Positions 10,162-55,113 of a stretch of DNA of 64,000 nt are shown in pieces. Every line of letters begins with the position of its first letter. The stretch's first letter is position 1. The translations under genes and the position numbers were made by a program. The notes beneath the pieces are model-generated. The model was given only the letters and a program-made list of their open reading frames with translations, was not told the DNA's origin and did no database searches. This stretch comes from a virus. Lineage: Duplodnaviria > Caudoviricetes. The stretch is from positions 30,536-94,535 of the IMG/VR virus record IMGVR_UViG_3300048670_001567; one strand, 5' to 3'.

Positions 10162-10711
10162 GATTTACCACCACCAGTTGTGCGTAACTCACACTATGCG
10201 ACCTCTTGAAATAATACCCGTCATCCGCAGGTTTGTCCCAGATGGTTTTGGCAACTTCTGACCAGGGACGACCAATCAGGTGCCGTTTGGCTGGGCGTAT
10301 CACAGCCAAAAACATAGCCAGTCTGGGTATACTGTCCACAGGCTCGGGCATCTTGAGCAGTGTTTCATAATGATTGTTGATGTGCACCAGTTGTTGACAT
10401 ATTTCAGGATCGTAGAGTCGGGCCCAGTCGGGTTCCCGCATCAGCTCAATCAGATGTTCTTCGCTTCGCACTTGCCGATAGACGTGAACATTCAACAAGT
10501 CCAATTTGATGTATCCACGCTGCTCGGCTATCTGATAATCCAGACTCGCACACCCTGAAAAGGGGTCCACAGGTATCTGTGTGGCATACACTCCGGTATT
10601 GTGTTTGACAAGTTTACCATCGCGCAATTGACTGGCAGGGATCACATCCAAAACATCTATCAACTGTTGTCTGTCAGCCAGATCTATATCAATGTCCGAA
10701 TTAAATTTCAT
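10136..10711 (-). CDS. miniature DNA polymerase III alpha (DnaE) core-like protein
   Basis: DIDID, KHNTGVY, YIKLDLL, IRP and YYFKRSHSVSYA motifs in DnaE order within 191 aa. Confidence 0.8.
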   Translation of the reverse strand: MKFNSDIDIDLADRQQLIDVLDVIPASQLRDGKLVKHNTGVYATQIPVDPFSGCASLDYQIAEQRGYIKLDLLNVHVYRQVRSEEHLIELMREPDWARLYDPEICQQLVHINNHYETLLKMPEPVDSIPRLAMFLAVIRPAKRHLIGRPWSEVAKTIWDKPADDGYYFKRSHSVSYAQLVVVNLNLLCEQV

Positions 10712-12164
10712 TTCTATGACAATCCAAGTCCGGTATATAATCCATTAGTCGCAATCCTCTGGAATTATCTAGCAAATCATTAAACTCAAAAAACTTTTTC
10801 AAAGTATTTGCATTAATTTGATTGGTATTAAATGTTTTAATCAAACCATCAACAAATGTTTCTAATAGTTTGGTATTTTTGTAACATTTTAAATCCTGAA
10901 TTTTAATTAATTCCCCCAAAATCAATTCACTGTCAGGAAAATTAAATGGGGAGAATATGTCATCTGACGATTCCGCTAATTGACAATGTATTAATCCTGA
11001 AGGATAATTATGTTCTAAAAATGACAGTATTTTATATAATGAAGAAATATTATAAATTGACACAGTTATATTAAACGATAAACTATGTCCGGATTCAACA
11101 ATCCAATTAATATTATCGCAAATGTTTTTCCAATTTGATGGCCACCTTACATAATAATTTAGTTCATCAACTCCATCAACACTTACAATAAAGCATACAT
11201 TTGAAAATTTGCTAATTTGATCTTTAAATTTCTTAGAAAACTTGTGAGCATTGGTGTTAATCATCAGTTCAAAATCGGTATTTTCTTGCCCAATACAATG
11301 ATCTAGAAACCGATAAAACTCAGCCATCGCAGTTGGTTCACCGCCAGCCACATACATTTTAAATAAATTATCAAAATCCACAAAATCAAAGTCAGTGTAG
11401 GTAGGTGTTGGAATTTCTGTTGGTATTAATTTCAGTAATTTATACTCTTGTTCAATCTGGTTGCTGGACGTTGGTCCACAGGTTCTGCACAGCAAATTGC
11501 ATACGTTACTAGCACGAACTTCGTAGTAGGCAGGTTTGGTAATTTTAAGCAGATCGTCAATGGATTTTAAATTGAGTCTGTTGGCCCATTCAACAGTTTC
11601 TTGTTGTCTGGCACTTCGCATCCCCAGTTCCTCAATTCGATAGCAGGCAGAACAATGCTCAGGCAACCGGCTGCCTTCAATCATATGTTGTCTGATGTGT
11701 TGATATTCGGGATTGTTATGAAAATCCAACCCCCGCAAAGGTGCTACTGGAGTTGCAGAACGGCAGCAAACAGTGGTATTCCCGTTGTTGACTAGCAATT
11801 CAATAAAAGGAAAAATACAAAAACTTGTATTTTGATCCACTAGATTTTCAAAAAAACTAACATCGGTCATATAGGACTTGTCTAAAAATTCAGCATTTAC
11901 CTCTTGCCCAACACTGACAGTTACATAAAATGCGTCTGGGTGGTTGTATTGTTCTTTTGGTTGATCTAATACAATAATCTTATCAAACTTTTCTGAAATA
12001 TCAATAAGTTCTGCTCGAGACAAATCAAATAGACTAGTTTGATAAAACCCATCACAAATTTCCTGATCAACACTACTTAGAAGTCCCCGATATTGTGTCC
12101 CAGATAACTGCTGCGTTTTAATTTCAGTGTCTATGGTATTATTTCCAATACACAAAACTTTCAT
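10701..12164 (-). CDS. radical SAM protein with twitch/SPASM-like domain
   Basis: CNLLCRTC (CxxxCxxC), GGEP, N-terminal C..PF..CC..CSAC; likely start MKVLC. Confidence 0.88.
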   Translation of the reverse strand: MKVLCIGNNTIDTEIKTQQLSGTQYRGLLSSVDQEICDGFYQTSLFDLSRAELIDISEKFDKIIVLDQPKEQYNHPDAFYVTVSVGQEVNAEFLDKSYMTDVSFFENLVDQNTSFCIFPFIELLVNNGNTTVCCRSATPVAPLRGLDFHNNPEYQHIRQHMIEGSRLPEHCSACYRIEELGMRSARQQETVEWANRLNLKSIDDLLKITKPAYYEVRASNVCNLLCRTCGPTSSNQIEQEYKLLKLIPTEIPTPTYTDFDFVDFDNLFKMYVAGGEPTAMAEFYRFLDHCIGQENTDFELMINTNAHKFSKKFKDQISKFSNVCFIVSVDGVDELNYYVRWPSNWKNICDNINWIVESGHSLSFNITVSIYNISSLYKILSFLEHNYPSGLIHCQLAESSDDIFSPFNFPDSELILGELIKIQDLKCYKNTKLLETFVDGLIKTFNTNQINANTLKKFFEFNDLLDNSRGLRLMDYIPDLDCHRNEI

Positions 12165-12853
12165 AAACCTGCCTCTCTCAATATCAATTTGACCCATTCA
12201 GTGTCTGCCACATAATCTTTGAACTTACGCTGCCAGAAGTCGGGATCTATCCAGGGCAGAATAATGGAGATATTTTCCTCGTTGAGTGTTTCCAGAAACT
12301 CCACGCCACTGGCACAATTATAAACAATCCAGGGACTGACACGACCATTGCTGATATGATGGCAAATACGATTGGCATTGCCATATCTGAAATAATCGTT
12401 GAAATTTGCTAGTGTTTGCACTTCATCTGCATAACTTTGCATCTCCATGAGTGCACGTTCTACTGCATCCTGAACTGCTTCGCGACGCATATATTGGTGC
12501 AGGTATTCCACATAGATGCTTTCTTTACACCAGTGATCTAGCTTTTTGTTTTCCCGAATAACCCAGTCTATAAATGCGCCAGAATTAACTGCTCGGATAG
12601 CAACCAGGTGGCGTCCAAATTTTACAAATGCCGTGTAGTAGGAACTGGCTACAAAATCCTCATAGCTCTTGAGTTTGGCAGATCCTTGTGTGACTTCGTA
12701 AAATCGCAGGTAGGCCCTGAAGCCCAGTTGAACTCCCACCTCTTTTTCCTGCTGCCATCTGCGTTTGGTTTCGCAAATGTGTGCGGCCAGAGTGCTTTCT
12801 CGTCGGAATTCTTTGTGACAATAGATACATTTATATGCTTTTATTTCGCTCAT
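12161..12853 (-). CDS. C2H2-type Zn-finger conserved phage protein
   Basis: N-terminal YKCIYCHKEF...LAAHIC. Confidence 0.7.
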   Translation of the reverse strand: MSEIKAYKCIYCHKEFRRESTLAAHICETKRRWQQEKEVGVQLGFRAYLRFYEVTQGSAKLKSYEDFVASSYYTAFVKFGRHLVAIRAVNSGAFIDWVIRENKKLDHWCKESIYVEYLHQYMRREAVQDAVERALMEMQSYADEVQTLANFNDYFRYGNANRICHHISNGRVSPWIVYNCASGVEFLETLNEENISIILPWIDPDFWQRKFKDYVADTEWVKLILREAGL

Positions 12854-41114: not shown

Positions 41115-41813
41115 TTAGTTACGTATTAAATAATCAAAAGCCCCCAAGGCGGCGGTGGCCCCACTGCCCATGCTAATGATGATCTGCTTGTAGGCAACAC
41201 TAGTGCAGTCCCCGGCAGCAAAGACTCCCGGAACATTTGTAGCATTGTGTCCATTAACAATGATTTGCCCAAAATGGTCCTTCTCTACATCTACAAATTC
41301 TGTGTTAGGGACCAGACCAATTTGTACAAACACACCCTCTAGTTCAAGATGCTGTTGTTCATTAGTAGCACGATCCACATAGGTAATGCCGTTAACTTTG
41401 TCCATGCCGGTAATCTCTTTTACCTGCACATTCTTTTTAACAGTTACATTTGGTAAACTATACACGCGATCCTGAAGAACTTTGTCCGCTTTAAGGTCTG
41501 ACATGAACTCAAATACAGTTACATGGCCAACAATACCTGCTAGGTCGATGGCGGCTTCAACACCTGAGTTGCCACCACCAATAACTGCCACATGCTTGCC
41601 TTTAAACAAAGGGCCATCACAATGTGGACAGTATGCTACACCTCGATTCTTGAACTCTGCTTCGCCCGGTATACCTAGGTTACGCCAACGAGCACCTGTG
41701 CCGATGCCCGGAGGACCCCACAGAAACACCGGACGATTGGCGCGGAACGCAGTGAGCAGGCTCTTGCGTGCTTGGATGCTGGTAACAGTACGATTTTCAC
41801 TAACATGGCGCAT
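41115..41813 (-). pseudogene. in-frame chimera: AAA ATPase N-terminus fused to the C-terminal half of AhpF
   Basis: [11 protein letters not shown] then TGARWR.LG.PGE...CPHCDG...GGGNSG...FAAGD. Confidence 0.8.
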
Positions 41814-41863: not shown

Positions 41864-42733
41864 TTAGTGGTCAACCAGGTTCCAAATTTCATTTCTTCGG
41901 TCGTGAGCCGGGATAACAACATCTGTCAAGGTCTGAGCCATGTTTTTTGCCGACGATCGCAGATGTGGGGTAATTCCTCCGCACAAGAACTTCACAGTCC
42001 AGTCGTGATGGGCTAGAGTGTTTGGGTGCGCATCTGTTTGGTGAGCGAACGATACCAACTCTTTGGAAGAAATGGTATACTCCCATAGTCCGTTGTAAGA
42101 AATTGGATCTTTGAAATTATCATGCATTGCTACAAACTTCTCCCAGTTGATTTGGGTGATCAACGACTGTACAACTGGAAGGTCTAATATACGTTGAGCC
42201 TGTTCGATTTCACCGGTGGTCAATGAAGATTTGTCTTGCCAGGTAGTATCGTACTGAGGTTTAAAAATTTCTCGGGTATCGCACCAAGGATTTTGCCAGA
42301 ACATCATACGATATTCGCATTGGCACTGATTCAGCAGCAATTGGGTTTGCAGAATTGTATTGAACATTTCAATCTGCATGTGACTTAGACTAGGCTGTCG
42401 GTCAAGCGGCGATTTGTACAATCCAAGATATGGAGTTTGGTGTGTAAACCATAGTTGTCCATCTGTCTCAGGAAAAAATCCTAGAAAGTCCTGTTGATAG
42501 ATGTGATCACGATCGTACCACTCACAGGTTCGGTTAGATCCAGTCCACATGATGTAGACTTGATCGTGTTTAGAAATTTTATCGATCCTTCGCAACAACT
42601 GATAGTAGATTAAAGAATTGGTATAGCCGGGATGCGCTAGATTGCAGATCGACTGAGATTGATAGTTTCCAAGCCAGTCGGCCCAGGTGGGCCAATGCCA
42701 TTTGGTAAAACTACAGCCTAATGTATAGATCAT
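41864..42733 (-). CDS. SGNH-hydrolase-like protein
   Basis: GCSFT...W, MWTG..R and DAHP motifs. Confidence 0.6.
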   Translation of the reverse strand: MIYTLGCSFTKWHWPTWADWLGNYQSQSICNLAHPGYTNSLIYYQLLRRIDKISKHDQVYIMWTGSNRTCEWYDRDHIYQQDFLGFFPETDGQLWFTHQTPYLGLYKSPLDRQPSLSHMQIEMFNTILQTQLLLNQCQCEYRMMFWQNPWCDTREIFKPQYDTTWQDKSSLTTGEIEQAQRILDLPVVQSLITQINWEKFVAMHDNFKDPISYNGLWEYTISSKELVSFAHQTDAHPNTLAHHDWTVKFLCGGITPHLRSSAKNMAQTLTDVVIPAHDRRNEIWNLVDH

Positions 42734-43683
42734 TGTGGGTAAAGGCGAATAGCATGCTGAACACGTTGTTGTAAACTGTGGTCTTCAATCATTTGAAGTG
42801 GGCAATTCTTTTGGGCCCAGAGGTTGAAAACATCAATACACGAATCTAAATTTGATATTTTTTCAATTTTGTCTTTCCAGGTGGCTGCCTTGATTGGAAT
42901 TGGATCCAGTATAACTTTTTGCTCGCATAGTTGATTCAGGGTATTCTCGATTTGATAAACCTTGGCAAGCGAATCCAGGTTGACGCACGATTGTTTTTTG
43001 CTGAGCCGATATTGTACCAACAAGTATTCTGCCAGGCTGATTCCAAACTTTTGTTCAATGGTCAGGGAATCTCCAAAGACATTTTTACAAACCTGGTCGA
43101 TGTCGCTTTCGAGATCGGCGTAGTCTATGTTTTTTGCCAGCGGAAAGCTTTTCTGTGCCCAGTTGATATAGTTCAGATATTTTGCAGATTGAGCAATGAC
43201 ATCGTCAGTCGACACTGTAAAGTTTTCAACAGATTCGTACAATTCATGACGTTGTTGAGCATTGTGAACACAATTAATCTGTTTTTCGTACGGTCTTTTG
43301 GTTTGTCTGCGTAATGCGTGACACAACGAATAATCAAAAATATCGTTCCTGGTCACAAAAAAAATATCAAATTTTTCTTGGAGGAATTGAAAAAATGTTG
43401 CTGATCGATCACGATCATGTCGCAGCAAAAAATGATCATAAGCTAACCGTGCTATAATAGGGTGCGGGCATTGTTCTAATAACTGTTGAATTTGTTCAAA
43501 TGGCTGCGCGTTTACGTCGCACCATTGTTTTACCAAATATCCATTGTGATAATCAATGCCGTTGAGTAGTTCATGGGGGTTGGTGACAGTGGGGTCGACT
43601 AGTTGATGTGCCCAAAAAGCAAGAGAACGTTGCAGGAGTGTTGACCCTGAATTAAACGTAGCAACAATTAGTTTTGACCTCAT
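42730..43683 (-). CDS. sulfotransferase-like P-loop protein
   Basis: NSGSTLLQ, HELLN, YADL. Confidence 0.5.
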   Translation of the reverse strand: MRSKLIVATFNSGSTLLQRSLAFWAHQLVDPTVTNPHELLNGIDYHNGYLVKQWCDVNAQPFEQIQQLLEQCPHPIIARLAYDHFLLRHDRDRSATFFQFLQEKFDIFFVTRNDIFDYSLCHALRRQTKRPYEKQINCVHNAQQRHELYESVENFTVSTDDVIAQSAKYLNYINWAQKSFPLAKNIDYADLESDIDQVCKNVFGDSLTIEQKFGISLAEYLLVQYRLSKKQSCVNLDSLAKVYQIENTLNQLCEQKVILDPIPIKAATWKDKIEKISNLDSCIDVFNLWAQKNCPLQMIEDHSLQQRVQHAIRLYPQ

Positions 43684-43711
43684 GCCAGTATTTAAGTATA
43701 GAATTTTTGGT

Positions 43712-43741
43712 CAAAAAAAAACCGCGCCTATTTTGGCGCGG
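43712..43741 (-). terminator. rho-independent terminator of pqqA
   Basis: CCGCGCC-AAAATA-GGCGCGG followed by a long T-run. Confidence 0.85.
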
Positions 43742-43761
43742 GCTGTACAGCGCGTCGCGAA

Positions 43762-43833
43762 TTAGCGAGCGGCGATGTACATGGTGACTTCGAAGCCGAA
43801 GCGCAGATCAGAAGCAGCGGGCTTGGTCCACAT
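43762..43833 (-). CDS. pqqA: PQQ precursor peptide PqqA
   Basis: [23 protein letters not shown]; W-x-K-P and E-x-x-x-Y motifs; AAGGAG RBS. Confidence 0.95.
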
Positions 43834-43963
43834 AATGATTCTCCTTGAAAATATTGAACTTACTTTAAGTACTCGACAACGATCAACTGTTGCTTGAAGT
43901 ACTTATAGTGAGTATAAGACACAATCCACCCAAATGCACTAAGTGTAATCATGAAATCTCTAT

Positions 43964-44281
43964 CTATAACTTCATGACGGCTATCAAGGCTTCGTTGGCA
44001 TCCCAGAATGCCCAGTACCATTCTTGCCGGGAATCACTTTCTAAAAACAATGGCAAAGCACCATGTTCTAGCAATTTGGTATCGGTGATGTATTCTTCCC
44101 AGTTGAGCAGGCCGCGAGTTTTGTGGACCACAGATATAGTACCGCGTTCTGGGATTCGATCCCGAGGCTCAACAACAAGCACCACGGCAGGCGGATTGTC
44201 CTGATGCAACGGTCTTAGCCGCTCCGCCTCGTAGTAGGGAATGTGCTCGTCAAGCCATTGCGGCCATGGCAGCAACTTCAT
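43964..44281 (-). CDS. conserved hypothetical phage protein
   Basis: 105 aa ORF. Confidence 0.65.
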   Translation of the reverse strand: MKLLPWPQWLDEHIPYYEAERLRPLHQDNPPAVVLVVEPRDRIPERGTISVVHKTRGLLNWEEYITDTKLLEHGALPLFLESDSRQEWYWAFWDANEALIAVMKL

Positions 44282-44852
44282 CGAGGTCCTTGATCAACTC
44301 GTGCCGGCGTTCCATGGTAAGCAGGGCACTTCTTGAATATCTGGCGTGGTCCACACCCACGATGAGTTCACTACCGTGTGCCAGGGCTTGTCGCATTGCC
44401 GCGGGCAATTCAAATCTAAGGAAATGCACAGCCGAGGTCTTGTCTGGTGTGGCTCGGTCAAGATCTTCGTCGGCTACAGCATACACGCGATGTCTACCAT
44501 GGATTTCTACGTATACACGACTTTCAATTCCTACCAGTTCTTGGAGTCGTTGTGCACGTTCCTCGGAATCCGAGTATTCAATCATCATGGTGGCCTTGAG
44601 ATTGGTACCAGTGGGAATCAAGGGTGTGTAGGCTGCTAGTTCATCCTGGATACCCTCGGGCTCAAATGTGCGTTCGATATGCAGCATTTCTTGGATCTGA
44701 TACAGCACAGTTTCGCGGTCTTCAAAACACAAGGTAACATGCGCACCCAGTTCGACCTGCCGATCGCGCCGGCGCAGCAGCGCGTCCTGTCGACGATTGG
44801 GACGCGCTGCTGCGTAGGCTTCCAAGGTCATGAGATCTTGGCGAGTGATCAT
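44250..44852 (-). CDS. DUF3501 family protein
   Basis: QIQEML.IE, EL.AY.PLIP, KTSAVHFLRF; start MITRQD. Confidence 0.88.
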   Translation of the reverse strand: MITRQDLMTLEAYAAARPNRRQDALLRRRDRQVELGAHVTLCFEDRETVLYQIQEMLHIERTFEPEGIQDELAAYTPLIPTGTNLKATMMIEYSDSEERAQRLQELVGIESRVYVEIHGRHRVYAVADEDLDRATPDKTSAVHFLRFELPAAMRQALAHGSELIVGVDHARYSRSALLTMERRHELIKDLDEVAAMAAMA

Positions 44853-44853
44853 T

Positions 44854-45288
44854 TTAACCTTGATCCGCGAGGTAGGCGTCCAGCGTGCGCTGGAACTTGC
44901 CGGCGTGCGAACGCTCGGCCTTGGCCAAGGTTTCAAACCAGTCAGCGATTTCGTCAAAGCCTTCGTCACGTGCATCACGAGCCATTGAAGGGTACATGTC
45001 AGTGTACTCATGGGTCTCGCCGTGGATGGCCGACTTCAGGGCCTCTACCACATCGCCAGCGGGCAAGCCAGTTTCGGGATCGCCCGAGCCGCCCTTGATC
45101 AGGTACTCCATGTGACCGTGTGCGTGGCCAGTTTCACCTTCTGCGGTGTGACGGAAGATGTTAGCCACGTCAGGTGCGCCCACGATGTCGGCCATGTTTG
45201 CGAAGTACAGATAACGACGATTGGCCTTTGATTCACCTGCAAATGCATCCTTGAGATGCTGTTCAGTCTTGGTTCCTACTAGTTTCAT
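44854..45288 (-). CDS. rubrerythrin (short type, no rubredoxin domain)
   Basis: [33 protein letters not shown]. Confidence 0.93.
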
Positions 45289-45298
45289 GTGTGTCTCC

Positions 45299-45364
45299 TT
45301 AAAATTTTCCAAATGATGCCCAAACCATCAGCACCATGACAATGCCGATCAGTGTTTCAAACAT
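45299..45364 (-). CDS. 21-aa hydrophobic peptide
   Basis: MFETLIGIVMVLMVWASFGKF; AAGGAG RBS; stop overlaps the rubrerythrin RBS. Confidence 0.55.
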   Translation of the reverse strand: MFETLIGIVMVLMVWASFGKF

Positions 45365-45460
45365 TGTTTTCTCCTTGCACTGCACAACAATTATATATGA
45401 AAAAAATCCTATTACACAACTGGAAATAATAGGTTTTGCTTATGCTATTTTTCTATAGGA

Positions 45461-46588
45461 TTAATAAATTCTGTTTATGTGCTCCCAGACCCAATTCCTG
45501 ACCGGTGCTATAAAATGCTCTCTGTTATTGATTAAATTTTGGTTGTGTGTTAGAACGTCATCAATTTTTTTTAAAACTTTTTCTGGATTATTTTTGGACA
45601 GCTCCGCCACTTGTTCAAATGCCATTTTCCATCGAATGTAATTATCTGGTTCTGAATCATAGGATTCATCAATCACAGCGCCAAATGTCTCAAATCCAAA
45701 ACTACGCAATTTTTCCAACTGTCGGTATGCTCCAAACAACACAAATGATCGATGGGCCAGCAAGGGTTTGGCAGTCTTTTCACTAAAAAACAGGTGACGA
45801 GTATCTGTCTCTGCTACTATACTATAATAGCTAGTATTATAAATATTTACTGGAAGCAAATTTGATGCCATGGGCTTGCCTGCTTCTGGTAATGGTGTAT
45901 ACGAATCGAATCCCAGATCCACAGAATTCATTGCTGGCTGAACCTGTACTAGTTCCAACTCAGTCAACCCCTGAGATTTATAGTGCACCGGTTTGGGATT
46001 TTGATCCCATCTGGTGGCCGCAGACAACGACACCCAGGATTTATCCAATAAATCATAATTAATTAAAGAATCAAAAATAAACTGGCGATGTGGTTTATTG
46101 ATTCCCAGCAAGGCATCAAATAGTTTGGGTTTGCTTTCAAATAATGGATTGGCATTGTTTAAATTTAAACGATGATTGACTGTCTGGGTTTGTAAAAAAA
46201 ACCAGGGAACGGTCAATACCGTATCCAGTGTGCTAAATGAATCCAGAGGGCAACTACTGAGTACAATAATTTTATTGTTGGAAAATTTTTCTGACAGAAT
46301 ATCAAAATATTCATCCACATTTATAATTTCAGCATCTATAACTATGATTAGATCAAAAACGTCAAGGTTTCGACCAGCCATCCCAGATTCTGGAAAAGCA
46401 CAGTTTACTACGGCAATTTTTATGTAATCACTTCCGTAGATTTTTTTAAATTCGTTGGCATCAAATGATGCATATGGTCCACTAACATGGACAACATCAG
46501 GGCGATCTGGGCGATTTAAAAATTTAACAGGGGCAATTTCATAACGGCCCAATGCCCATTCGAAGTCCAGAATTACTATTTTTTTCAT
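45461..46588 (-). CDS. AT-rich glycosyltransferase-like protein
   Basis: SIVAET...FFSEKTAKPL...GFETF..IDESYD. Confidence 0.5.
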   Translation of the reverse strand: MKKIVILDFEWALGRYEIAPVKFLNRPDRPDVVHVSGPYASFDANEFKKIYGSDYIKIAVVNCAFPESGMAGRNLDVFDLIIVIDAEIINVDEYFDILSEKFSNNKIIVLSSCPLDSFSTLDTVLTVPWFFLQTQTVNHRLNLNNANPLFESKPKLFDALLGINKPHRQFIFDSLINYDLLDKSWVSLSAATRWDQNPKPVHYKSQGLTELELVQVQPAMNSVDLGFDSYTPLPEAGKPMASNLLPVNIYNTSYYSIVAETDTRHLFFSEKTAKPLLAHRSFVLFGAYRQLEKLRSFGFETFGAVIDESYDSEPDNYIRWKMAFEQVAELSKNNPEKVLKKIDDVLTHNQNLINNREHFIAPVRNWVWEHINRIY

Positions 46589-46655
46589 TTATTCTCGATA
46601 CCCAAAATCAAAAATATTTATGTAAAAATAGTAAAAGAATTGCTGCAATTTACTG

Positions 46656-47321
46656 CTATTTTAATTTGTCTAGCCAACGCTGATTGACTCGGTCCACATC
46701 CAGCACTGTCATAAAGTCTGCAGTTCCAAACACTGGATCCACGCTGGGATCTCCTGCAATTTCTGCACCCATTTTGAGATAAACTTTGATCAGATTGGGA
46801 ATCTGAAAATCATCAACCCCAGTTGAGTTTACCAGCAAGGGATTTTTTGGGATGACATGAGATTTATTCAGATAATCAAACTCTTGTTGCCAATGATGTC
46901 TGAGAGAACTCAATCTGTCAGCACCTTGACTCAGACCAATACTACTGGGCCCCAGAATGAATCGGCAGCCCAGCTGATCAGCCAGTTCCATCAGGGCGGA
47001 CCAGAGCTTGGTTATGACCATCATGCTCTTGGCATCAGGGGCCACTGCTGCCCGCCCCACTTCCAGAATCTGATTCCTAGGGATATTTAATTTGCCAAAA
47101 TCAAACTCAGTTTCAGAATAGAAGCCCAGCTCGGTGTCCTGTATGGCCCGATAACACCCATAAATTTTATCGTTGTCTGTGGCAATGACATGCCAACAGA
47201 CATCGTCCCAGGCATCCCGATCCTGCTCGGGGGCGATGCCATAGACTTCAGAAAAAATCTGACCTCTAAATTCCAGGACACGATCTCGCCAACTGGGATC
47301 CTGAGTTAAAATTACTTCCAC
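46656..47321 (-). CDS. GNAT N-acyltransferase, OlsB-like
   Basis: DRDAWD..C.H, GFYSETEF, LEVGR, P.LIK.YLKMGA...GDP.VDP.FGTADF. Confidence 0.8.
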   Translation of the reverse strand: MEVILTQDPSWRDRVLEFRGQIFSEVYGIAPEQDRDAWDDVCWHVIATDNDKIYGCYRAIQDTELGFYSETEFDFGKLNIPRNQILEVGRAAVAPDAKSMMVITKLWSALMELADQLGCRFILGPSSIGLSQGADRLSSLRHHWQQEFDYLNKSHVIPKNPLLVNSTGVDDFQIPNLIKVYLKMGAEIAGDPSVDPVFGTADFMTVLDVDRVNQRWLDKLK

Positions 47322-47331
47322 TTGCTATGAA

Positions 47332-47508
47332 TCAGTCGCCTGCTGGCGCTGTGTCCTTGTCACCTGCACGACGATTTCTAAATGCATGCAGACTTTTTTC
47401 AGCATCTATCATCATCTTCTTGTAGGTGGTCTTTACTGCAGAACTCTTGATCAATGCCATTTCACGTTTGACTGCGGTGGGCAATTTGAAATTAATTTTA
47501 CTGGCCAT
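47332..47508 (-). CDS. 58-aa basic hypothetical protein (not in ORF track)
   Basis: MASKINFKLPTAVKR...; AAGGA RBS. Confidence 0.6.
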   Translation of the reverse strand: MASKINFKLPTAVKREMALIKSSAVKTTYKKMMIDAEKSLHAFRNRRAGDKDTAPAGD

Positions 47509-47532
47509 GTTTTTCCTTGTATTAAAAAATTT

Positions 47533-47606
47533 TGGAGCGGCATGCCAGAATCGAACTGGCGACTTTAGCTTGGAAGGCTAAGGTAATACCATTTTACGAA
47601 TGCCGC
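47533..47606 (-). tRNA. tRNA-Gly(TCC)
   Basis: cloverleaf with encoded CCA. Confidence 0.93.
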
Positions 47607-47614
47607 ATACGTTT

Positions 47615-47698
47615 TGGTGGGCGGGGAGAGACTCGAACTCTCACGCCTCACGGCACTGGCTTCTAAGACCAGCGTGGCTACCATTACACCACCCGCCC
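47615..47698 (-). tRNA. tRNA-Leu(TAG)
   Basis: cloverleaf, long variable arm, CCA. Confidence 0.93.
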
Positions 47699-47799
47699 GC
47701 AATCTTACTTATCTGTAACAAACACAGCAGAAATAATTAGCGACAACAATGGGAGATGATTGCCAAATATCCATAAATACTTGTGTACTGGGAGCCGTT

Positions 47800-48294
47800 A
47801 TGAAAAAATTGTTTTTTTTCTTGAGCTTGCTGGCCCCAGTGGTCTGTTCAGCGGCGGACATCAACAAAACACCGCTGCCACCCATACTGTATCAGAATCT
47901 AATCGAACGTCTGATACCTGAAGTCACTGAAATAACCCGACTGCCCGTGCCCGATGAAAAACCTCAGGTGTTTGTGGCCGATAGAAATCAGATTGAGCTG
48001 GCCTACTGCCGAGATCAACGACACGATTGTCATGTGGCTGCTATCACTGACGACAAGACTGGTGAAATCATTCTGAGTCCCGCACTGTTACAATTGAATG
48101 TGTTCACAGCCAGTGTGGTGTTTCATGAACTGGTGCACTGGGCTCAGGTTAAAAACGGCATGTTCACCGATGAACCCGACTGCATACACTGGGCCAAAAG
48201 TGAAATGCATGCCTACACTGCACAGAGCAGGTTTTTAGAAAAACAAGCGGGTCGAGGATTTCCAGTGCCTGACTTGCTGGCACAGTGCAGATGA
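47800..48294 (+). CDS. secreted HExxH metallopeptidase-like protein
   Basis: signal peptide, HELVH, E..AY..Q; paralogue of 51868..52374. Confidence 0.7.
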   Translation: MKKLFFFLSLLAPVVCSAADINKTPLPPILYQNLIERLIPEVTEITRLPVPDEKPQVFVADRNQIELAYCRDQRHDCHVAAITDDKTGEIILSPALLQLNVFTASVVFHELVHWAQVKNGMFTDEPDCIHWAKSEMHAYTAQSRFLEKQAGRGFPVPDLLAQCR

Positions 48295-48300
48295 CCCAGT

Positions 48301-48780
48301 TTAAAATCCAATAACTGTCTTGAGCCGATCAGCAGCACAACTGGCAGCAAATGCTCGGGGTTTGATGAATGGCACCACATTGCACATGCCTTTGATGTAG
48401 CCCACTGCCTCATTGATCACACAGTTGGATGCATACATCTCATCAGGATTAATATCCAGATGCACTTCAAATTCACGATCTTCCAGAACTTCGTGTAGTT
48501 TCAGGTACAATTCTGCAACCTTGTAGACTTCGGTCATCAGACGCATTCTAGGCCGATCGCGGTTCTGATCATAATCACGTTCACGATGCACTTCACCAAA
48601 AATCTTGCAGCCATGGCGGCCGTCAATATGCACCACAATGGCTAGGGTATAATCAGCCCACCATTGTTCTTTCAAGCGAAATCTTTCACTATCACCGCCG
48701 ATGTAGATCCGGGTGTTGGGTCCTTGAGCAAGGATGAATTCTCTTACTTCGTCGATGTCGATTTTTTTAAACATGCTCAA
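48301..48780 (-). CDS. RNase H-like YkuK (DUF458) protein
   Basis: IYIG.DS, RLMTEV, EVHLDIN, KP.AFAAS.AAD. Confidence 0.85.
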   Translation of the reverse strand: MSMFKKIDIDEVREFILAQGPNTRIYIGGDSERFRLKEQWWADYTLAIVVHIDGRHGCKIFGEVHRERDYDQNRDRPRMRLMTEVYKVAELYLKLHEVLEDREFEVHLDINPDEMYASNCVINEAVGYIKGMCNVVPFIKPRAFAASCAADRLKTVIGF

Positions 48781-48815
48781 GTATTTAACAAACTAACGTT
48801 ACAGGATTATTAAAC

Positions 48816-48892
48816 TGGCCTGCCCAGAGGGATTCGAACCCCCGACCCTATCATTAGAAGTGATATGCTCTATCCAGCTGAGCTATGGGCAG
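48816..48892 (-). tRNA. tRNA-Arg(TCT)
   Basis: cloverleaf, CCA. Confidence 0.93.
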
Positions 48893-48903
48893 GTAACAAA
48901 ATA

Positions 48904-48932
48904 ATTATAGTATGGTTCAGGGAGGATGTCAA
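48904..48932 (-). promoter_or_regulatory. consensus sigma70 promoter
   Basis: TTGACA-17-TATAAT. Confidence 0.88.
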
Positions 48933-48954
48933 TGACTTTAGATTGACGAGAATT

Positions 48955-49030
48955 TGGTGGAGGTGGACGGGATCGAACCGACGACATTTAGCTTGCAAAG
49001 CTAACGCTCTCCCAACTGAGCTACACCCCC
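48955..49030 (-). tRNA. tRNA-Ala(TGC)
   Basis: cloverleaf, G3:U70 pair, CCA. Confidence 0.94.
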
Positions 49031-49066
49031 TTGGGGTAATCTGGCAAGAACCTTACCAAAAAAATA

Positions 49067-49142
49067 TGGTGCTGGAGGCAGGATTCGAACTCGCGACCCC
49101 CTGATTACAAATCAGGTGCTCTACCGACTGAGCTACTCCAGC
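49067..49142 (-). tRNA. tRNA-Thr(TGT)
   Basis: cloverleaf, CCA, one T-stem mismatch. Confidence 0.88.
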
Positions 49143-49150
49143 GTTAAACT

Positions 49151-49528
49151 TTACGCCGACTTCTTTGCACGTGGTTTACGTGCAGGTTTTTCTACAACTG
49201 CCACTGTGACCTGTTCTGCCGATGGGGCAGCTTTGGGCTGACGTGGCTTGCGTGTTTTTTTGACTTCGGGGACCACTTCTACTGCAACTGTTTCTGTCAC
49301 TGGATTCTCGGGCACCATCACTTCTGCGGTCTTGGCACGTGACTTCTTGGCGACAACTTTGGTGATTTTATCTTCCACCATGGCAATGGCAGCTCTGACT
49401 TCCAGTACGAGCTTGTCCCAGTGTGTGACAAATTCAATGCGACCGTCTGGATATTCAGTGCGTGTGCTGTGGTTGCCTTGTGTTACCTGAGGTTCAGTTT
49501 GTTTGGTGTAACGTTTGGTTGTCTTCAT
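49151..49528 (-). CDS. Lys/Ala/Pro-rich basic-tail protein
   Basis: 125 aa, histone-like tail, TATAAATA upstream. Confidence 0.65.
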   Translation of the reverse strand: MKTTKRYTKQTEPQVTQGNHSTRTEYPDGRIEFVTHWDKLVLEVRAAIAMVEDKITKVVAKKSRAKTAEVMVPENPVTETVAVEVVPEVKKTRKPRQPKAAPSAEQVTVAVVEKPARKPRAKKSA

Positions 49529-49566
49529 AAAAATATTTATACTCGAAATACAATACTATTATTTTT

Positions 49567-49642
49567 TGGCTCCCCGACCTGGGCTCGAACCAGGGACACA
49601 CGGATTAACAGTCCGTTGCTCTACCGACTGAGCTATCGGGGA
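49567..49642 (-). tRNA. tRNA-Asn(GTT)
   Basis: cloverleaf, CCA. Confidence 0.94.
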
Positions 49643-49690
49643 ATTAAATTTACTTATACCAGGCCAGTGACAGTAATAATTTTACACTTC

Positions 49691-49910
49691 TGGTATTGGG
49701 AATAGGTGTCAGGCCACCTGCACCACCAGGCCCCTGACTGAGCTGTTACTCTGTCCAGATGTTCACTATAGAGGAGCATCACACCTGTGGGCCGTTCTCG
49801 TAGGGTCCGACTGCTACGCTGTTCCTCAAGGTGGACAGAGCACCTGAGAGTTTCTGGAAGTTCCGGCCGGAACTGGGACTCACAACCTCCTGATTGAACC
49901 GTCAGGATCG
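49691..49910 (-). ncRNA. putative structured non-coding RNA inside the tRNA cluster
   Basis: several nested or adjacent stems, GC-rich, no credible ORF. Confidence 0.45.
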
Positions 49911-49918
49911 GTAGTGTT

Positions 49919-49995
49919 TGGTACGAGCGGGGGGACTTGAACCCACCGACCAACGGATTAAAAGCCCGCTGCTCTACCAACTGAGCTACACTCGC
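49919..49995 (-). tRNA. tRNA-Lys(TTT)
   Basis: cloverleaf, CCA. Confidence 0.88.
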
Positions 49996-50003
49996 ATAAA
50001 ATC

Positions 50004-50094
50004 TGGCGGAGAGTCAGGGATTCGAACCCTGGATACAGCTTAACTGTATGCCGGTTTAGTAGACCGGTGCAATCGACCACTCTGCCAACTCTCC
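50004..50094 (-). tRNA. tRNA-Ser with ACT anticodon
   Basis: CCGGT-CTACTAA-ACCGG, long variable arm, G73, CCA. Confidence 0.88.
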
Positions 50095-50144
50095 CAACGT
50101 TCAACAAGTATATACAGTTTCTGATGCCAAGTCAATAAAAATAT

Positions 50145-50220
50145 TGGTGGGTAGTGTTGGACTCGAACCAACATCGTCCTCCTTGTAAGGGAGGTGCATA
50201 ACCTCTCTGCTCAACTACCC
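50145..50220 (-). tRNA. tRNA-Val(TAC)
   Basis: cloverleaf, CCA. Confidence 0.88.
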
Positions 50221-50230
50221 AATAAATTTG

Positions 50231-50315
50231 TGGTGCCCGGGGCCGGAATCGAACCGGCACGCCTTGCGGCGGAGGATTTTGAGTCCTCTGCGTCTACCTG
50301 TTTCACCACCCGGGC
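50231..50315 (-). tRNA. tRNA-Leu(CAA)
   Basis: cloverleaf, long variable arm, CCA. Confidence 0.94.
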
Positions 50316-50317
50316 TG

Positions 50318-50392
50318 GGGTTGCGGAGACCTGGATTTGAACCAAGAACTCAGGCTTATGAGACCTGTGTGATGCCATTTCACTATCCCGCG
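50318..50392 (-). tRNA. tRNA-Met(CAT), initiator-like, imperfect acceptor end
   Basis: 5' CGCGGG, CAT anticodon, irregular 3' end. Confidence 0.7.
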
Positions 50393-50499
50393 TCGGTATT
50401 TTACAGCTGATTTGTTAATGAACACATCTACTATTTAACCAGTATACCATCGTTGCAGGCAGATGTCAATCACAAGTTTAAAAATTCAGAAAAAATACA

Positions 50500-51156
50500 T
50501 CAGTCTGATTGCTTTGATTGTTCTATTCTTTGATGTGATTCAAGTATTTGTTTTACTAGTGCTCCATTTTTGAAATCACGTTCCCAAACAATTTCCGGAT
50601 AGTCATTGGGCCGCCAGGGGCAAATATTTTCAAAATAAGTTGCCATATCAGCGTAATCAATACCGACATCACAGGGCACATCGTAGGTCTGCAATCGATT
50701 GCCCATCTCAGGTAAAAGTAAGTGTAAGGGGTAGATGGGGCATTGATCCAGATGTTCTTGATAGACTGATTGTTGAGTGCCACTGTGTTGAAATTCAGGG
50801 TTGGTTGTGGTAGCAAATGAATTCTTTTGAAACATAAAATAACAACTGATGGCCCAGCTAATAATATCTGATCTAGTCAGGCGAATCACATGCCATTCTT
50901 CCAGATGTTTTGTTTGCTGAATTAACTTTTCCTTGGATATTAGGTCATTGGCAATACATATATGATATTTGCCATTACCAGTATTAATGTCCTGGTGTAT
51001 GTCCCTGCCATTGAGTTGATCCTGAATTACATAAGGCACCTGTTGCCTTCTGAGTAGAATCTCAATGACATTCTGTAAGTAATGTGATCCCGAGCGGGGA
51101 CTGCCGACAATAATCGTTCCGCGTTTTTTCAGATCATATAATTGAATTTGACTCAT
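50500..51156 (-). CDS. sulfotransferase-like protein
   Basis: GSPRSGSHYL, IRLTR.D....IS. Confidence 0.6.
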   Translation of the reverse strand: MSQIQLYDLKKRGTIIVGSPRSGSHYLQNVIEILLRRQQVPYVIQDQLNGRDIHQDINTGNGKYHICIANDLISKEKLIQQTKHLEEWHVIRLTRSDIISWAISCYFMFQKNSFATTTNPEFQHSGTQQSVYQEHLDQCPIYPLHLLLPEMGNRLQTYDVPCDVGIDYADMATYFENICPWRPNDYPEIVWERDFKNGALVKQILESHQRIEQSKQSD

Positions 51157-52423: not shown

Positions 52424-54478
52424 TTAGAATAGCACAAAGTCGGCAGCAGACAATTTGCCAATGCCCACCGTAGAGACTTCGGCAAATTGTACAGGCGCAA
52501 TCTTTCCAGTGCCGTCTGCATCGTAGTAGAGTTTATTGGCGGCACTGTCATAAATGACTCTGTCATACTTGTCCTGTGCCTGTGTGCCAACGATGAACTG
52601 ATCGGCAAATTTGATTGAACCAGATATCTTGAACATGGATTTAGACAAACGAACTTTGTCCACACCAACCTCAAAGTCAGTGATCGCATCAATATTAGTG
52701 GCACCGGGTGCGGTATCAAACACAAAATAATCTGCAGCAGCGCCACCAGTGAGCACATCATTACCTGATCCACCGGACATCTGATCAGACCCAGCACCGC
52801 CCTGGATGGTGTCATTACCAGCAAGCCCAGTCAGTATGTCTGATCCCAATGAGCCCACGATGCTGTTATTCAAAGTATTTCCCTTGCCCTTGAATGTTGC
52901 CGGACCAGTGTAAGTCAAATTCTCCACGTTGCTGCCCAGTGTGTAACTCACCAGTGAGGTCATTACCGTGTCAGTGCCTTGATTGGCCAGTTCCACCACC
53001 CGATCGCCAGTGCTGTCCACGTAGTAGGTGTCGTCACCCAACCCGCCCACCATGGAGTCATTACCTGCTCCACCGTCCAGGGTGTCATCACCCGCAAGCC
53101 CCGTTAGGGTGTCGTTACCACCGAGCCCCTGAATTGAATCAGCATCATTCGTTCCTGAAAGTCGATCTGCTTTGGCAGTGCCTCGGATTACGGGATCTAT
53201 ACCCAGGAAGACCTGCACTTGCTCTCCAATGTTTCTGGTAAGTGAGGGTGGAATAACTCCTCGCGCAGCGACGACATCCATAACTCCATCGTTATTGGCG
53301 TCAAAGAAAAATGCATTGGTTAAATACCAGTCAGGGAACGATTCCCTGGTCTGAAATGGCCCATTGGCATTCGTGGCGAAGTGCCCTGTGCCATCGTTGT
53401 ACCAGACCAGATCATTGAACTTACTGGGGTGAATGCCAAATGTACTGTTCCAGAAGTCTGTATAACCATCATTATTGAAATCTCTGAAATAGATCTGCAA
53501 GCCAGCACCCTTGCCAGCCAAATTATAAACAGCGCCACTTGGATCGGTTTGGAGGCGACCATTCGCATCTTGGAAATAAACCGTGGCGATGGTATTACTT
53601 AGATTCATACCAGTAACCTCGGTCTCCCAAGTGACAACCAAATCCTCCCTGCCATCGTTATTGACGTCGATGTTGGTCATGTCGACTGCACCGTAGTTTC
53701 TTTCACGATCCTGACCCAGATTCGGTCTGGCCAGAGTCTGTGTCTCAACAAAAAATCCGTTTTGCTGATTCAGGACCGCGAGGTCTCCTGGTGATTGGGT
53801 AGGATCAAACCAGCGATAAGCACCAGCAACCAAGCCATAGGAAGCACCCAATCGAATGAAGGTGGCGCCAGATGCAGAGAATGTCCCATCATTAAATTTA
53901 ACTGGCACCAGATCTTCTCGGGTGGTGAAATGACCACGCCCATCGTTTACCAGAATCCGCAAGTGCCTAAAGGATGCGATAACCGCATCCAGCTTGCCAT
54001 CGGCATTAAAATCTGCTGATGCGCCGATGTGATTGAAAGTAACATCATTATTGCCCGCCACCAAGAATTCATCAGTGGGTACGGATTTTAGTCCAGAACC
54101 CGTGCCCACGTAGAATTTTGGCTGGCTAAATTGGAAGGCCGCGCTATTTCGGTTATCTAACTCAAACCCCTGATCCATCATCAGATAATCATAAATGCCA
54201 TCACCCGTGAAATCACCAGGAACAGCGTCTCTGAAATATTGAAAACTGCTGGGGCCAGAAACCAAGTCGGGTCTGGCAGAAAAAACACCATTGGAGTTGG
54301 ACCACACCAAGGGCTGCAACTCGGGAAAAGTGGTAAAGTTAGAAGGAAAGGTAACCAGATCGGTGAATCCATTTCCGTCGACGTCGGCAATAACTACTGC
54401 ATTGATTTTGCCGTAGGCATATGTCAGGGAATTCGCTTCATTCAAATACTGCGCCGAGGTGTAAGAGGTTTTTAACAT
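52424..54478 (-). CDS. FG-GAP repeat plus RTX Ca-binding repeat protein
   Basis: DxxxDG..D repeats, GGxGxD nonapeptides, C-terminal T1SS-type tail. Confidence 0.88.
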   Translation of the reverse strand: MLKTSYTSAQYLNEANSLTYAYGKINAVVIADVDGNGFTDLVTFPSNFTTFPELQPLVWSNSNGVFSARPDLVSGPSSFQYFRDAVPGDFTGDGIYDYLMMDQGFELDNRNSAAFQFSQPKFYVGTGSGLKSVPTDEFLVAGNNDVTFNHIGASADFNADGKLDAVIASFRHLRILVNDGRGHFTTREDLVPVKFNDGTFSASGATFIRLGASYGLVAGAYRWFDPTQSPGDLAVLNQQNGFFVETQTLARPNLGQDRERNYGAVDMTNIDVNNDGREDLVVTWETEVTGMNLSNTIATVYFQDANGRLQTDPSGAVYNLAGKGAGLQIYFRDFNNDGYTDFWNSTFGIHPSKFNDLVWYNDGTGHFATNANGPFQTRESFPDWYLTNAFFFDANNDGVMDVVAARGVIPPSLTRNIGEQVQVFLGIDPVIRGTAKADRLSGTNDADSIQGLGGNDTLTGLAGDDTLDGGAGNDSMVGGLGDDTYYVDSTGDRVVELANQGTDTVMTSLVSYTLGSNVENLTYTGPATFKGKGNTLNNSIVGSLGSDILTGLAGNDTIQGGAGSDQMSGGSGNDVLTGGAAADYFVFDTAPGATNIDAITDFEVGVDKVRLSKSMFKISGSIKFADQFIVGTQAQDKYDRVIYDSAANKLYYDADGTGKIAPVQFAEVSTVGIGKLSAADFVLF

Positions 54479-54702: not shown

Positions 54703-54750
54703 CAACTTTTATACAGTTATCTACTAAATATTATTTTGCGGAGCACAAAT

Positions 54751-55113
54751 ATGTCACACTGGGGATATCATCTGACTCTGGACTGTCATGATTGCCATCG
54801 TGCGTTGATCAAAGAACGCCTAAATGTTCACAACTTCATCAAAGAATTGGTGAATCGCATAGACATGCAGCCCATTGGCGAACCTTGGATCGAACACACT
54901 GCTGCAGATCTTCCCGACAAGGCCGGGTTCACAGCAGTGCAAATCATTGTGACCAGCAGTATTGTGGCACACTTTGTGGACAGCACAGGTGACATCTACC
55001 TGGATGTTTTCAGTTGTCGGGAGTTTAAAATCAGCACGGTTAAGGAAGTGGTGCAGGAATATTTCAAACCCCAAAACATGCGTATGAATTTCCTGACACG
55101 TCAGGCTGGATAA
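54751..55113 (+). CDS. speD: S-adenosylmethionine decarboxylase proenzyme
   Basis: WGYHL.LD, GFTAVQII.TSSI.AH, YLDVFSCR. Confidence 0.88.
   Translation: MSHWGYHLTLDCHDCHRALIKERLNVHNFIKELVNRIDMQPIGEPWIEHTAADLPDKAGFTAVQIIVTSSIVAHFVDSTGDIYLDVFSCREFKISTVKEVVQEYFKPQNMRMNFLTRQAG

Follow-up and report, generated by a model that had tools for sequence, protein, structure and literature searches.

In methylotrophs, the oxidation of methanol and alcohols begins with dehydrogenases that depend on PQQ as their cofactor, and these PQQ dehydrogenases tie one-carbon compounds to respiration in lakes as well as in oceans. PqqB–E are the catalysts of PQQ synthesis and PqqA is its stoichiometric substrate, one peptide being consumed per PQQ. 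A parallel to a phage-borne pqqA is found in the cyanophages, where psbA encodes a protein subunit with measured expression and benefit. In both cases just a fast-consumed part of a host energy system is carried while the rest is left to the host, and the host-like sequence suggests exchange with the host copies. The two differ in that psbA specifies a whole protein subunit, whereas pqqA specifies a sacrificial substrate peptide that is known here from its sequence.

Viral PqqA has been reported from methylotroph phages of Lake Baikal, population VP_266 (Coutinho et al. 2020 Microbiome 8:163, PMC7678222), and pqqA also appears among the viral genes of a survey from 2026. The concept of a phage pqqA was thus already published in 2020 and is not new biology. 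Like the phage described here, VP_266 is an uncultured freshwater phage that has the precursor peptide without pqq enzymes, and in both cases pqqA has been interpreted as auxiliary to methanol oxidation. The VP_266 virus also had a methanol dehydrogenase and predicted Methylophilaceae hosts, whereas our 94.5 kb record is without any PQQ enzyme, carries two copies of pqqA, and has a peptide with the ending YIAAR that is found only in metagenome-assembled genomes (MAGs) of high-GC Betaproteobacteria. What is new is the YIAAR type outside the Methylophilaceae, the giant-phage setting, the presence of two copies, the visible boundaries of the capture and a recurrent link to rubrerythrin. With this case phage pqqA is known also from giant phages, and these are tied to another, uncultured lineage of Betaproteobacteria.

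Among cultured phages, a tblastn search of a GenBank phage set returned an intact pqqA in Melnitz (four records), Venkman, P19250A, MEP301, MEP401 and MEP402, and also in the Manatee Spring podovirus. Nine of the records returned are from cultured Methylophilales phages, and in every one of them the gene is an orphan, with 23–24 codons and its own ribosomal binding site and without pqqB–E, as in the present phage, but the peptides end in YVMNK and are 61–73% identical to the first copy described below. In the open papers that full-text searches gave for these phages, PQQ occurs only as a supplement to the medium. The earlier note, which was made from the window's letters only, had expected that gene callers easily miss so short a gene, and this is borne out by Melnitz, Venkman, P19250A, MEP301 and MEP402, where pqqA is unannotated or overlain by an antisense CDS. 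The pqqA of Melnitz-1 (L003:4001–4066; MZ577095.1, 74888–74953) is unannotated, lies under the antisense 'hypothetical protein' CDS Melnitz1EXVC043M_151 and is located just before a tRNA-Leu gene, and in Venkman, P19250A, MEP301 and MEP402 the pqqA region carries no annotated feature at all. Two matches named 'Acinetobacter phage MD-2021a' were discarded as bacterial contigs with a full pqqABCDE; one of them, CAKLQF020000010.1 (L008), is a bacterial contig of 144 kb that bears fur, ppk and a full pqqABCDE operon, and is evidently mislabelled.

A search of IMG/VR with a degenerate DNA pattern showed that at least 120 contigs carry pqqA. Every pqqA ORF among the matches listed is intact and, with few exceptions, encodes a peptide of the YVMNK type, and no pqqB–E was found in 1.02 Mb of sequence flanking pqqA in these contigs. 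The family search across phage genomes that had been proposed for this gene thus finds pqqA both in cultured Methylophilales phages and in uncultured viruses; phage pqqA is far commoner than annotation suggests and nearly always unannotated.

The DNA analysed here, referred to as the window, is a stretch of 64,000 nucleotides constituting bases 30536–94535 of the 94.5 kb IMG/VR virus record IMGVR_UViG_3300048670_001567 (record label G000). The CheckV estimate of completeness for the record is 27%, which implies a genome of roughly 350 kb, and the record is a fragment of a giant freshwater phage. In keeping with a large phage, it has genes for a helicase of the DnaB type and for other helicases, as well as for NrdA, NrdB and an exonuclease, and there are 7 occurrences of the T4-type late motif TATAAATA against 1.75 expected. 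No capsid, portal or terminase genes were found in the 94.5 kb. A large terminase is present in two related viral records, namely G011 (201.7 kb), which has a seven-gene block in common with our record at 49–83% amino acid identity, and G021 (215 kb); in the related records G020 and G022, which like these two share gene blocks with our record, a terminase is accompanied by capsid or portal genes of the T4 type. A cluster of 11 tRNA genes, interleaved with small ORFs, is located on the minus strand at window positions 47533–50391, and an Rfam search over 43000–51000 gave tRNAs and nothing else. An RNase H-like gene lies within the cluster (48301–48780); its homologue is found beside rubrerythrin and pqqA in phages of the G020 type, and near pqqA in the related record G018.

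The first copy of pqqA is located on the minus strand at 43762–43833 and consists of 23 codons and a stop. The product scores 41.3 bits against Pfam PF08042 (E 1.4e-10, cut-off 21.1) and 39.4 bits against the NCBIfam equivalog model TIGR02107 (cut-off 20), and copy 1 is a genuine member of the PqqA family above both curated cut-offs. The cross-link pair Glu15 and Tyr19 is intact, and in both pqqA copies of the record it falls within the motif FGFEVTMY. A ribosomal binding site, AAGGAGA (43840–43846, minus strand), can be read directly 6 nt before the ATG. Downstream, a terminator scan and folding give an intrinsic terminator or attenuator at 43713–43741 on the same strand, with a 7-bp all-GC stem at 43722–43741 that begins twenty nt past the stop codon, a 6-nt loop and nine U at 43713–43721. 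The stand-alone 23-residue pqqA with a ribosomal binding site and its own terminator, as first described, is thus verified in all three elements. Scans for σ70 promoters gave nothing above chance near either pqqA copy, and the sole promoter-like element upstream of copy 1 is a late-type box, TATAAGTA, with one mismatch. The gene has 57% GC while the immediate flanks have 36–38% and the whole record 44%, in agreement with the host-like, GC-rich composition claimed for it.

When one genome of each prokaryote species was scanned for a gene with the C-terminal end and stop of copy 1, 21 loci were found; they lie in about a dozen MAGs, which by their record titles are nearly all Betaproteobacteria, Burkholderiales or Rhodocyclaceae. 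These donor-type MAGs mostly have 63–67% GC and many hold 2–3 pqqA copies; the nine that could be sized are 1.7–3.6 Mb and the seven closest 1.7–2.1 Mb. The title 'Enterobacteriaceae' (L132 and L140; CAZGBK01) and the title 'Klebsiella pneumoniae' (L144, L145 and L149; CAMDGF01) stand on MAGs in which the loci have 63–67% GC and a betaproteobacterial-type pqq, and are probably wrong. The peptide of copy 1 is exactly that of bacterial loci L144, L146 and L150 and one residue from most of the others, and at the DNA level the gene agrees with the near-identical copies among loci L131–L150 at 64–69 of the 72 nt. The best host match asked for in the earlier note therefore lies in high-GC freshwater Betaproteobacteria, at 69/72 nt with L146 from a Lake Lanier MAG, and all three differences are synonymous.

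The likeness continues beyond the gene. Against the operon-linked loci L139, L142 and L145 the gene is identical at 67–68 of 72 nt and the 3' flank at 37–39 of 54, and the match to the hairpin in the pqqA–pqqB intergenic region of these loci takes in both arms of the stem and the 14-nt spacer behind the stop codon. Upstream of the ribosomal binding site the identity drops to 13–20 of about 75 positions. A GGAGA-like box is common to copy 1, copy 2 and the bacterial pqqA genes. Since the gene and the 3' flank match the operon and the upstream region does not, a cassette of about 130 nt with ribosomal binding site, gene and hairpin (43713–43848, minus strand) has been captured just short of pqqB, and copy 1 was taken, hairpin included, from a bacterial pqq operon. 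Bacterial operon copies and copy 1 thus share the same or nearly the same peptide and the hairpin, but the hairpin is followed by pqqB in the bacteria and by unrelated ORFs in the phage. The exact captured unit, from the ribosomal binding site through the operon hairpin, is visible.

A GC-rich cassette amid AT-rich flanks is also what host contamination or a chimeric assembly would give, if a bacterial fragment had been put into a viral contig. However, the bacterial homology stops within about 15 nt of the ribosomal binding site and at the U-run, with no further operon gene, two differing copies are present in one record, and the same neighbours surround pqqA in the independent 215 kb record G021. 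Here the gene order is a homologue of orf105 (see below), pqqA and an oxidoreductase, which is the order of the window. The misassembled host fragment named in the earlier note as a possible objection therefore fails, since pqqA keeps the same neighbours in related giant phages, and we regard contamination as extremely improbable. The downstream anchor of this synteny is a pyridine-nucleotide disulphide oxidoreductase gene at 41115–41813 (minus strand; PF07992, 116 bits), whose homologue in G021, 87% identical over the first 38 residues, comes directly after pqqA, whereas the window has two extra ORFs (41864–43683) between the two genes. For one of these, ORF 42730–43683, no IMG/VR relatives were found, and it is without synteny information. 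Each of the related records G011, G018, G020 and G022 has one orphan pqqA with its own ribosomal binding site and its own, different hairpin.

The second copy of pqqA (G000:C1:4102–4173, which is L155:4102–4173; minus strand) is located 26 kb before the window, and scores 36.9 bits with PF08042 and 36.5 bits with TIGR02107. A GGAGA box of its own and a strong hairpin with a U-run (-18.9 kcal/mol, z -3.8) accompany it. The two copies share 59 of 72 nt. Outside the leader codons 6–10 the codon differences are 5 synonymous and none non-synonymous, and within these codons 1 synonymous and 3 non-synonymous; a core with synonymous changes only and a variable leader is the pattern expected of a peptide with its core under constraint. 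Summed over nine phage genes the core shows 258 synonymous to 8 non-synonymous differences, a count that is biased because the pattern used to find six of the genes already prescribes the core, and the evidence for selection is taken from the comparison of copy 1 with copy 2 only. Copy 2 has 47% GC, is identical at 58–60 of 72 nt to the same bacterial pqqA genes, and on these values looks older, or of other origin, than copy 1. It lies 127 nt downstream of a gene for a RimK-type ATP-grasp ligase (L155:4301–5188; PF08443, 159.9 bits). RimK enzymes append residues to the C-termini of peptides, and the pairing of a RimK-type gene with pqqA is kept in none of the relatives examined.

These comparisons also bear on whether the gene is a neutral passenger, a host piece of 130 nt brought in by illegitimate recombination without benefit. 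The 57% GC of copy 1 and its identity of 69/72 to a bacterial gene could reflect a recent pickup on which selection has yet to act, but the gene comes back as an intact orphan in phages of unrelated types and in no fewer than 120 viral contigs, the compositionally adapted copy 2 has an identical core, and the synteny with G021 is kept at a pqqA identity of 62/72 nt. A passenger is thus unlikely.

The note's statement that there is no pqqBCDE in the window holds for the entire record, as profile searches for PqqD, PqqE, PqqC and a PQQ_2 dehydrogenase, and tblastn with Acinetobacter PqqB–E as queries, gave no match in the 94.5 kb. As a positive control, the same tblastn queries did recover the pqqBCDE genes of bacterial loci. 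PqqC, PqqE and PQQ_2 are likewise absent from five related phage records (58–215 kb, 21–61% complete), while two bacterial control genomes gave PqqC and PqqE above cut-off in the same searches. The phage copies in the 94.5 kb record therefore do not have the position beside pqqBCDE that is typical of pqqA, but this is no bar to membership of the PqqA family because the bacterial relatives keep 1–2 orphan copies off the operon. As the record holds about 27% of the genome, pqqB–E or a PQQ enzyme could sit in the missing part.

We consider it fairly probable, at about 0.7, that this is a functional phage-borne auxiliary pqqA that supplies the consumable component of PQQ synthesis. Having only pqqA of the pathway, the phage can act only via host enzymes. 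It would contribute the precursor peptide alone, which host PqqD and PqqE would bind and cross-link between Glu15 and Tyr19, after which the cofactor would be completed by PqqB, PqqC and a peptidase of the host. Since one peptide is destroyed per PQQ while the enzymes turn over, peptide supply should be the first to fail when host transcription is shut down. During such a shutdown by a large lytic phage the phage copy would keep the substrate peptide coming, and sustained PQQ would keep the periplasmic methanol and alcohol dehydrogenases feeding the respiratory chain during infection. Expression during infection, processing by the host enzymes and a gain in PQQ or phage yield are all inferred. 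The auxiliary role proposed in the earlier note is supported, at the level of sequence, by the conserved core and variable leader and by the orphan state of the gene in every phage locus examined.

It also fits the donor bacteria, which have pqqBCDE and several methanol/ethanol-type PQQ dehydrogenases. In the donor-type loci pqqBCDE adjoin one of the pqqA copies, PqqC and PqqE are above cut-off in the two donor-type genomes tested for them, and each of five donor-type genomes tested has 2–3 TIGR03075 methanol/ethanol-type PQQ dehydrogenases that exceed the curated cut-off (520–790 bits, best hits 784–790). With genomes of just 1.7–2.1 Mb, PQQ-dependent oxidation of alcohol or methanol makes up a large share of their metabolism. 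The hairpin between bacterial pqqA and pqqB probably gives an excess of pqqA transcript, and its retention in the phage fits a supply of substrate; in G020-type phages a hairpin likewise stands between pqqA and the next gene. Methylotrophs keep several pqqA copies, and for some of the orphan ones expression goes in step with the amount of PQQ produced (PMC9851590). In Acetobacter, pqqAB on a plasmid raised PQQ by 29% and the whole cluster eightfold (PMC7936290), and the small gain with pqqAB indicates that the peptide is not always limiting. PQQ is moreover stable and reusable, so that extra synthesis within a single infection may matter little.

The same peptide could in principle serve as a decoy or regulator that occupies host PqqD/PqqE or another partner and shuts down or redirects PQQ synthesis, since a substrate and a competitive binder look alike in the present sequence data and leader residues 6–10 vary among the phage copies. 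A pure decoy would need neither the consumed Glu and Tyr nor the whole core, which are strictly kept, and the peptide of copy 1 is identical to that of three bacterial loci (L144, L146 and L150), indicating that such a role is very unlikely. Supply of substrate thus remains the preferred reading, and the case offers a clear test of the idea that what phages take along of a host pathway is its consumable component.

The genes upstream of pqqA are arranged head to tail on the minus strand in the order rubrerythrin, DUF3501, orf105 and pqqA, with rubrerythrin about 1 kb from pqqA, and no terminator is predicted in this run before the pqqA hairpin. The conserved neighbour orf105 (43964–44281) has no Pfam hit. 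A homologue with 65% identity is located immediately upstream of pqqA in G021, and the protein is rare, with only 7 clusters among 5.8 billion proteins. An AlphaFold model of the product (pLDDT 80) has unrelated chains as its best matches (Foldseek E 0.5, VIA Z 4.6). The idea of a PqqD-like chaperone finds no Pfam hit in orf105 and no match to PF05402 in the record at E up to 1. The DUF3501 gene (44250–44882; PF12007, 227.8 bits) is part of a GC-rich block and has homologues with 51–59% identity in 10 other viral contigs and with about 50% in candidate host genomes. The rubrerythrin gene (44854–45312; PF02915, 88.5 bits) is 73–92% identical in 14 related viral loci (70% in a partial hit in L174), the upper values of 84–92% being those of ten other large viral contigs that also have DUF3501, and 70–76% identical to candidate host genomes. 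In the G020-type loci L170, L171, L172, L174 and L179 rubrerythrin adjoins pqqA downstream, with an identity of 73% (again 70% in the partial L174). The rubrerythrin–DUF3501 pair is GC-rich and conserved in at least 10 other large viral contigs, and the bacterial relatives have a gap of about 1.5 kb between the two genes that the phages are without.

Rubrerythrin on the same strand in the window, its place directly beside pqqA in five other viral loci, and the oxidoreductase that follows pqqA in G021 could together point to a redox or peroxide-protection module, in which PQQ serves as an antioxidant or for an unsequenced phage enzyme along with rubrerythrin and DUF3501. Such a module seems improbable, as rubrerythrin is present in just 1 of the at least 120 Methylophilaceae-type pqqA loci listed, six phage records contain no PQQ_2 enzyme, and the link may reflect one shared accessory-gene region only. 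The last step of PQQ synthesis, that of PqqC, yields peroxide, and the association of rubrerythrin with pqqA may be functional, for instance in relation to peroxide, or merely that of a common region of accessory genes.

Within the substrate-supply reading, pqqA could be a host-matched part that is updated by exchange with the host copies, copy 1 being a recent capture or gene conversion and copy 2 an older one, with the leader and the tail type tracking host PqqD/PqqE; we hold this extension to be possible but rather doubtful. The source of copy 1 may then be the operon-linked pqqA of the host, hairpin included, while copy 2 may have been compositionally adapted, and the tail types, YIAAR here and YVMNK in Methylophilaceae phages, may follow the respective hosts. 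If this is true, the 72 nt of pqqA could be used as a host-lineage marker for uncultured methylotroph phages, the host of this giant phage group would be an uncultured, high-GC freshwater betaproteobacterial methylotroph with a small genome, and the rubrerythrin link could mean that the phage also handles peroxide from the PqqC step. The GC content of the donor MAGs, 63–67% against 44% in the phage, leaves a gap of about 20 points that is unusually wide for a phage and its host, and the donor lineage of copy 1 may therefore differ from the current host.

Three further genes of the window deserve mention. A radical SAM protein of 498 residues with a twitch domain is encoded at 10701–12197 (NF033640, 237.5 bits); it has no match to TIGR02109 and is not PqqE. 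In G011 a generic radical SAM gene, different from that of the window, starts 88 nt after pqqA (L168:1660–2556), and its product is also ruled out as PqqE with 17.2 bits against a TIGR02109 cut-off of 381. A protein of 684 residues (52424–54478) combines FG-GAP repeats and calcium-binding repeats of the RTX type with a serralysin-type domain at its C-terminus, an unusual feature for a phage. A small S-adenosylmethionine decarboxylase-like gene (54736–55113; PF02675, 62.7 bits) shows 40–50% identity to its counterpart in the G020-type phage loci that carry pqqA.
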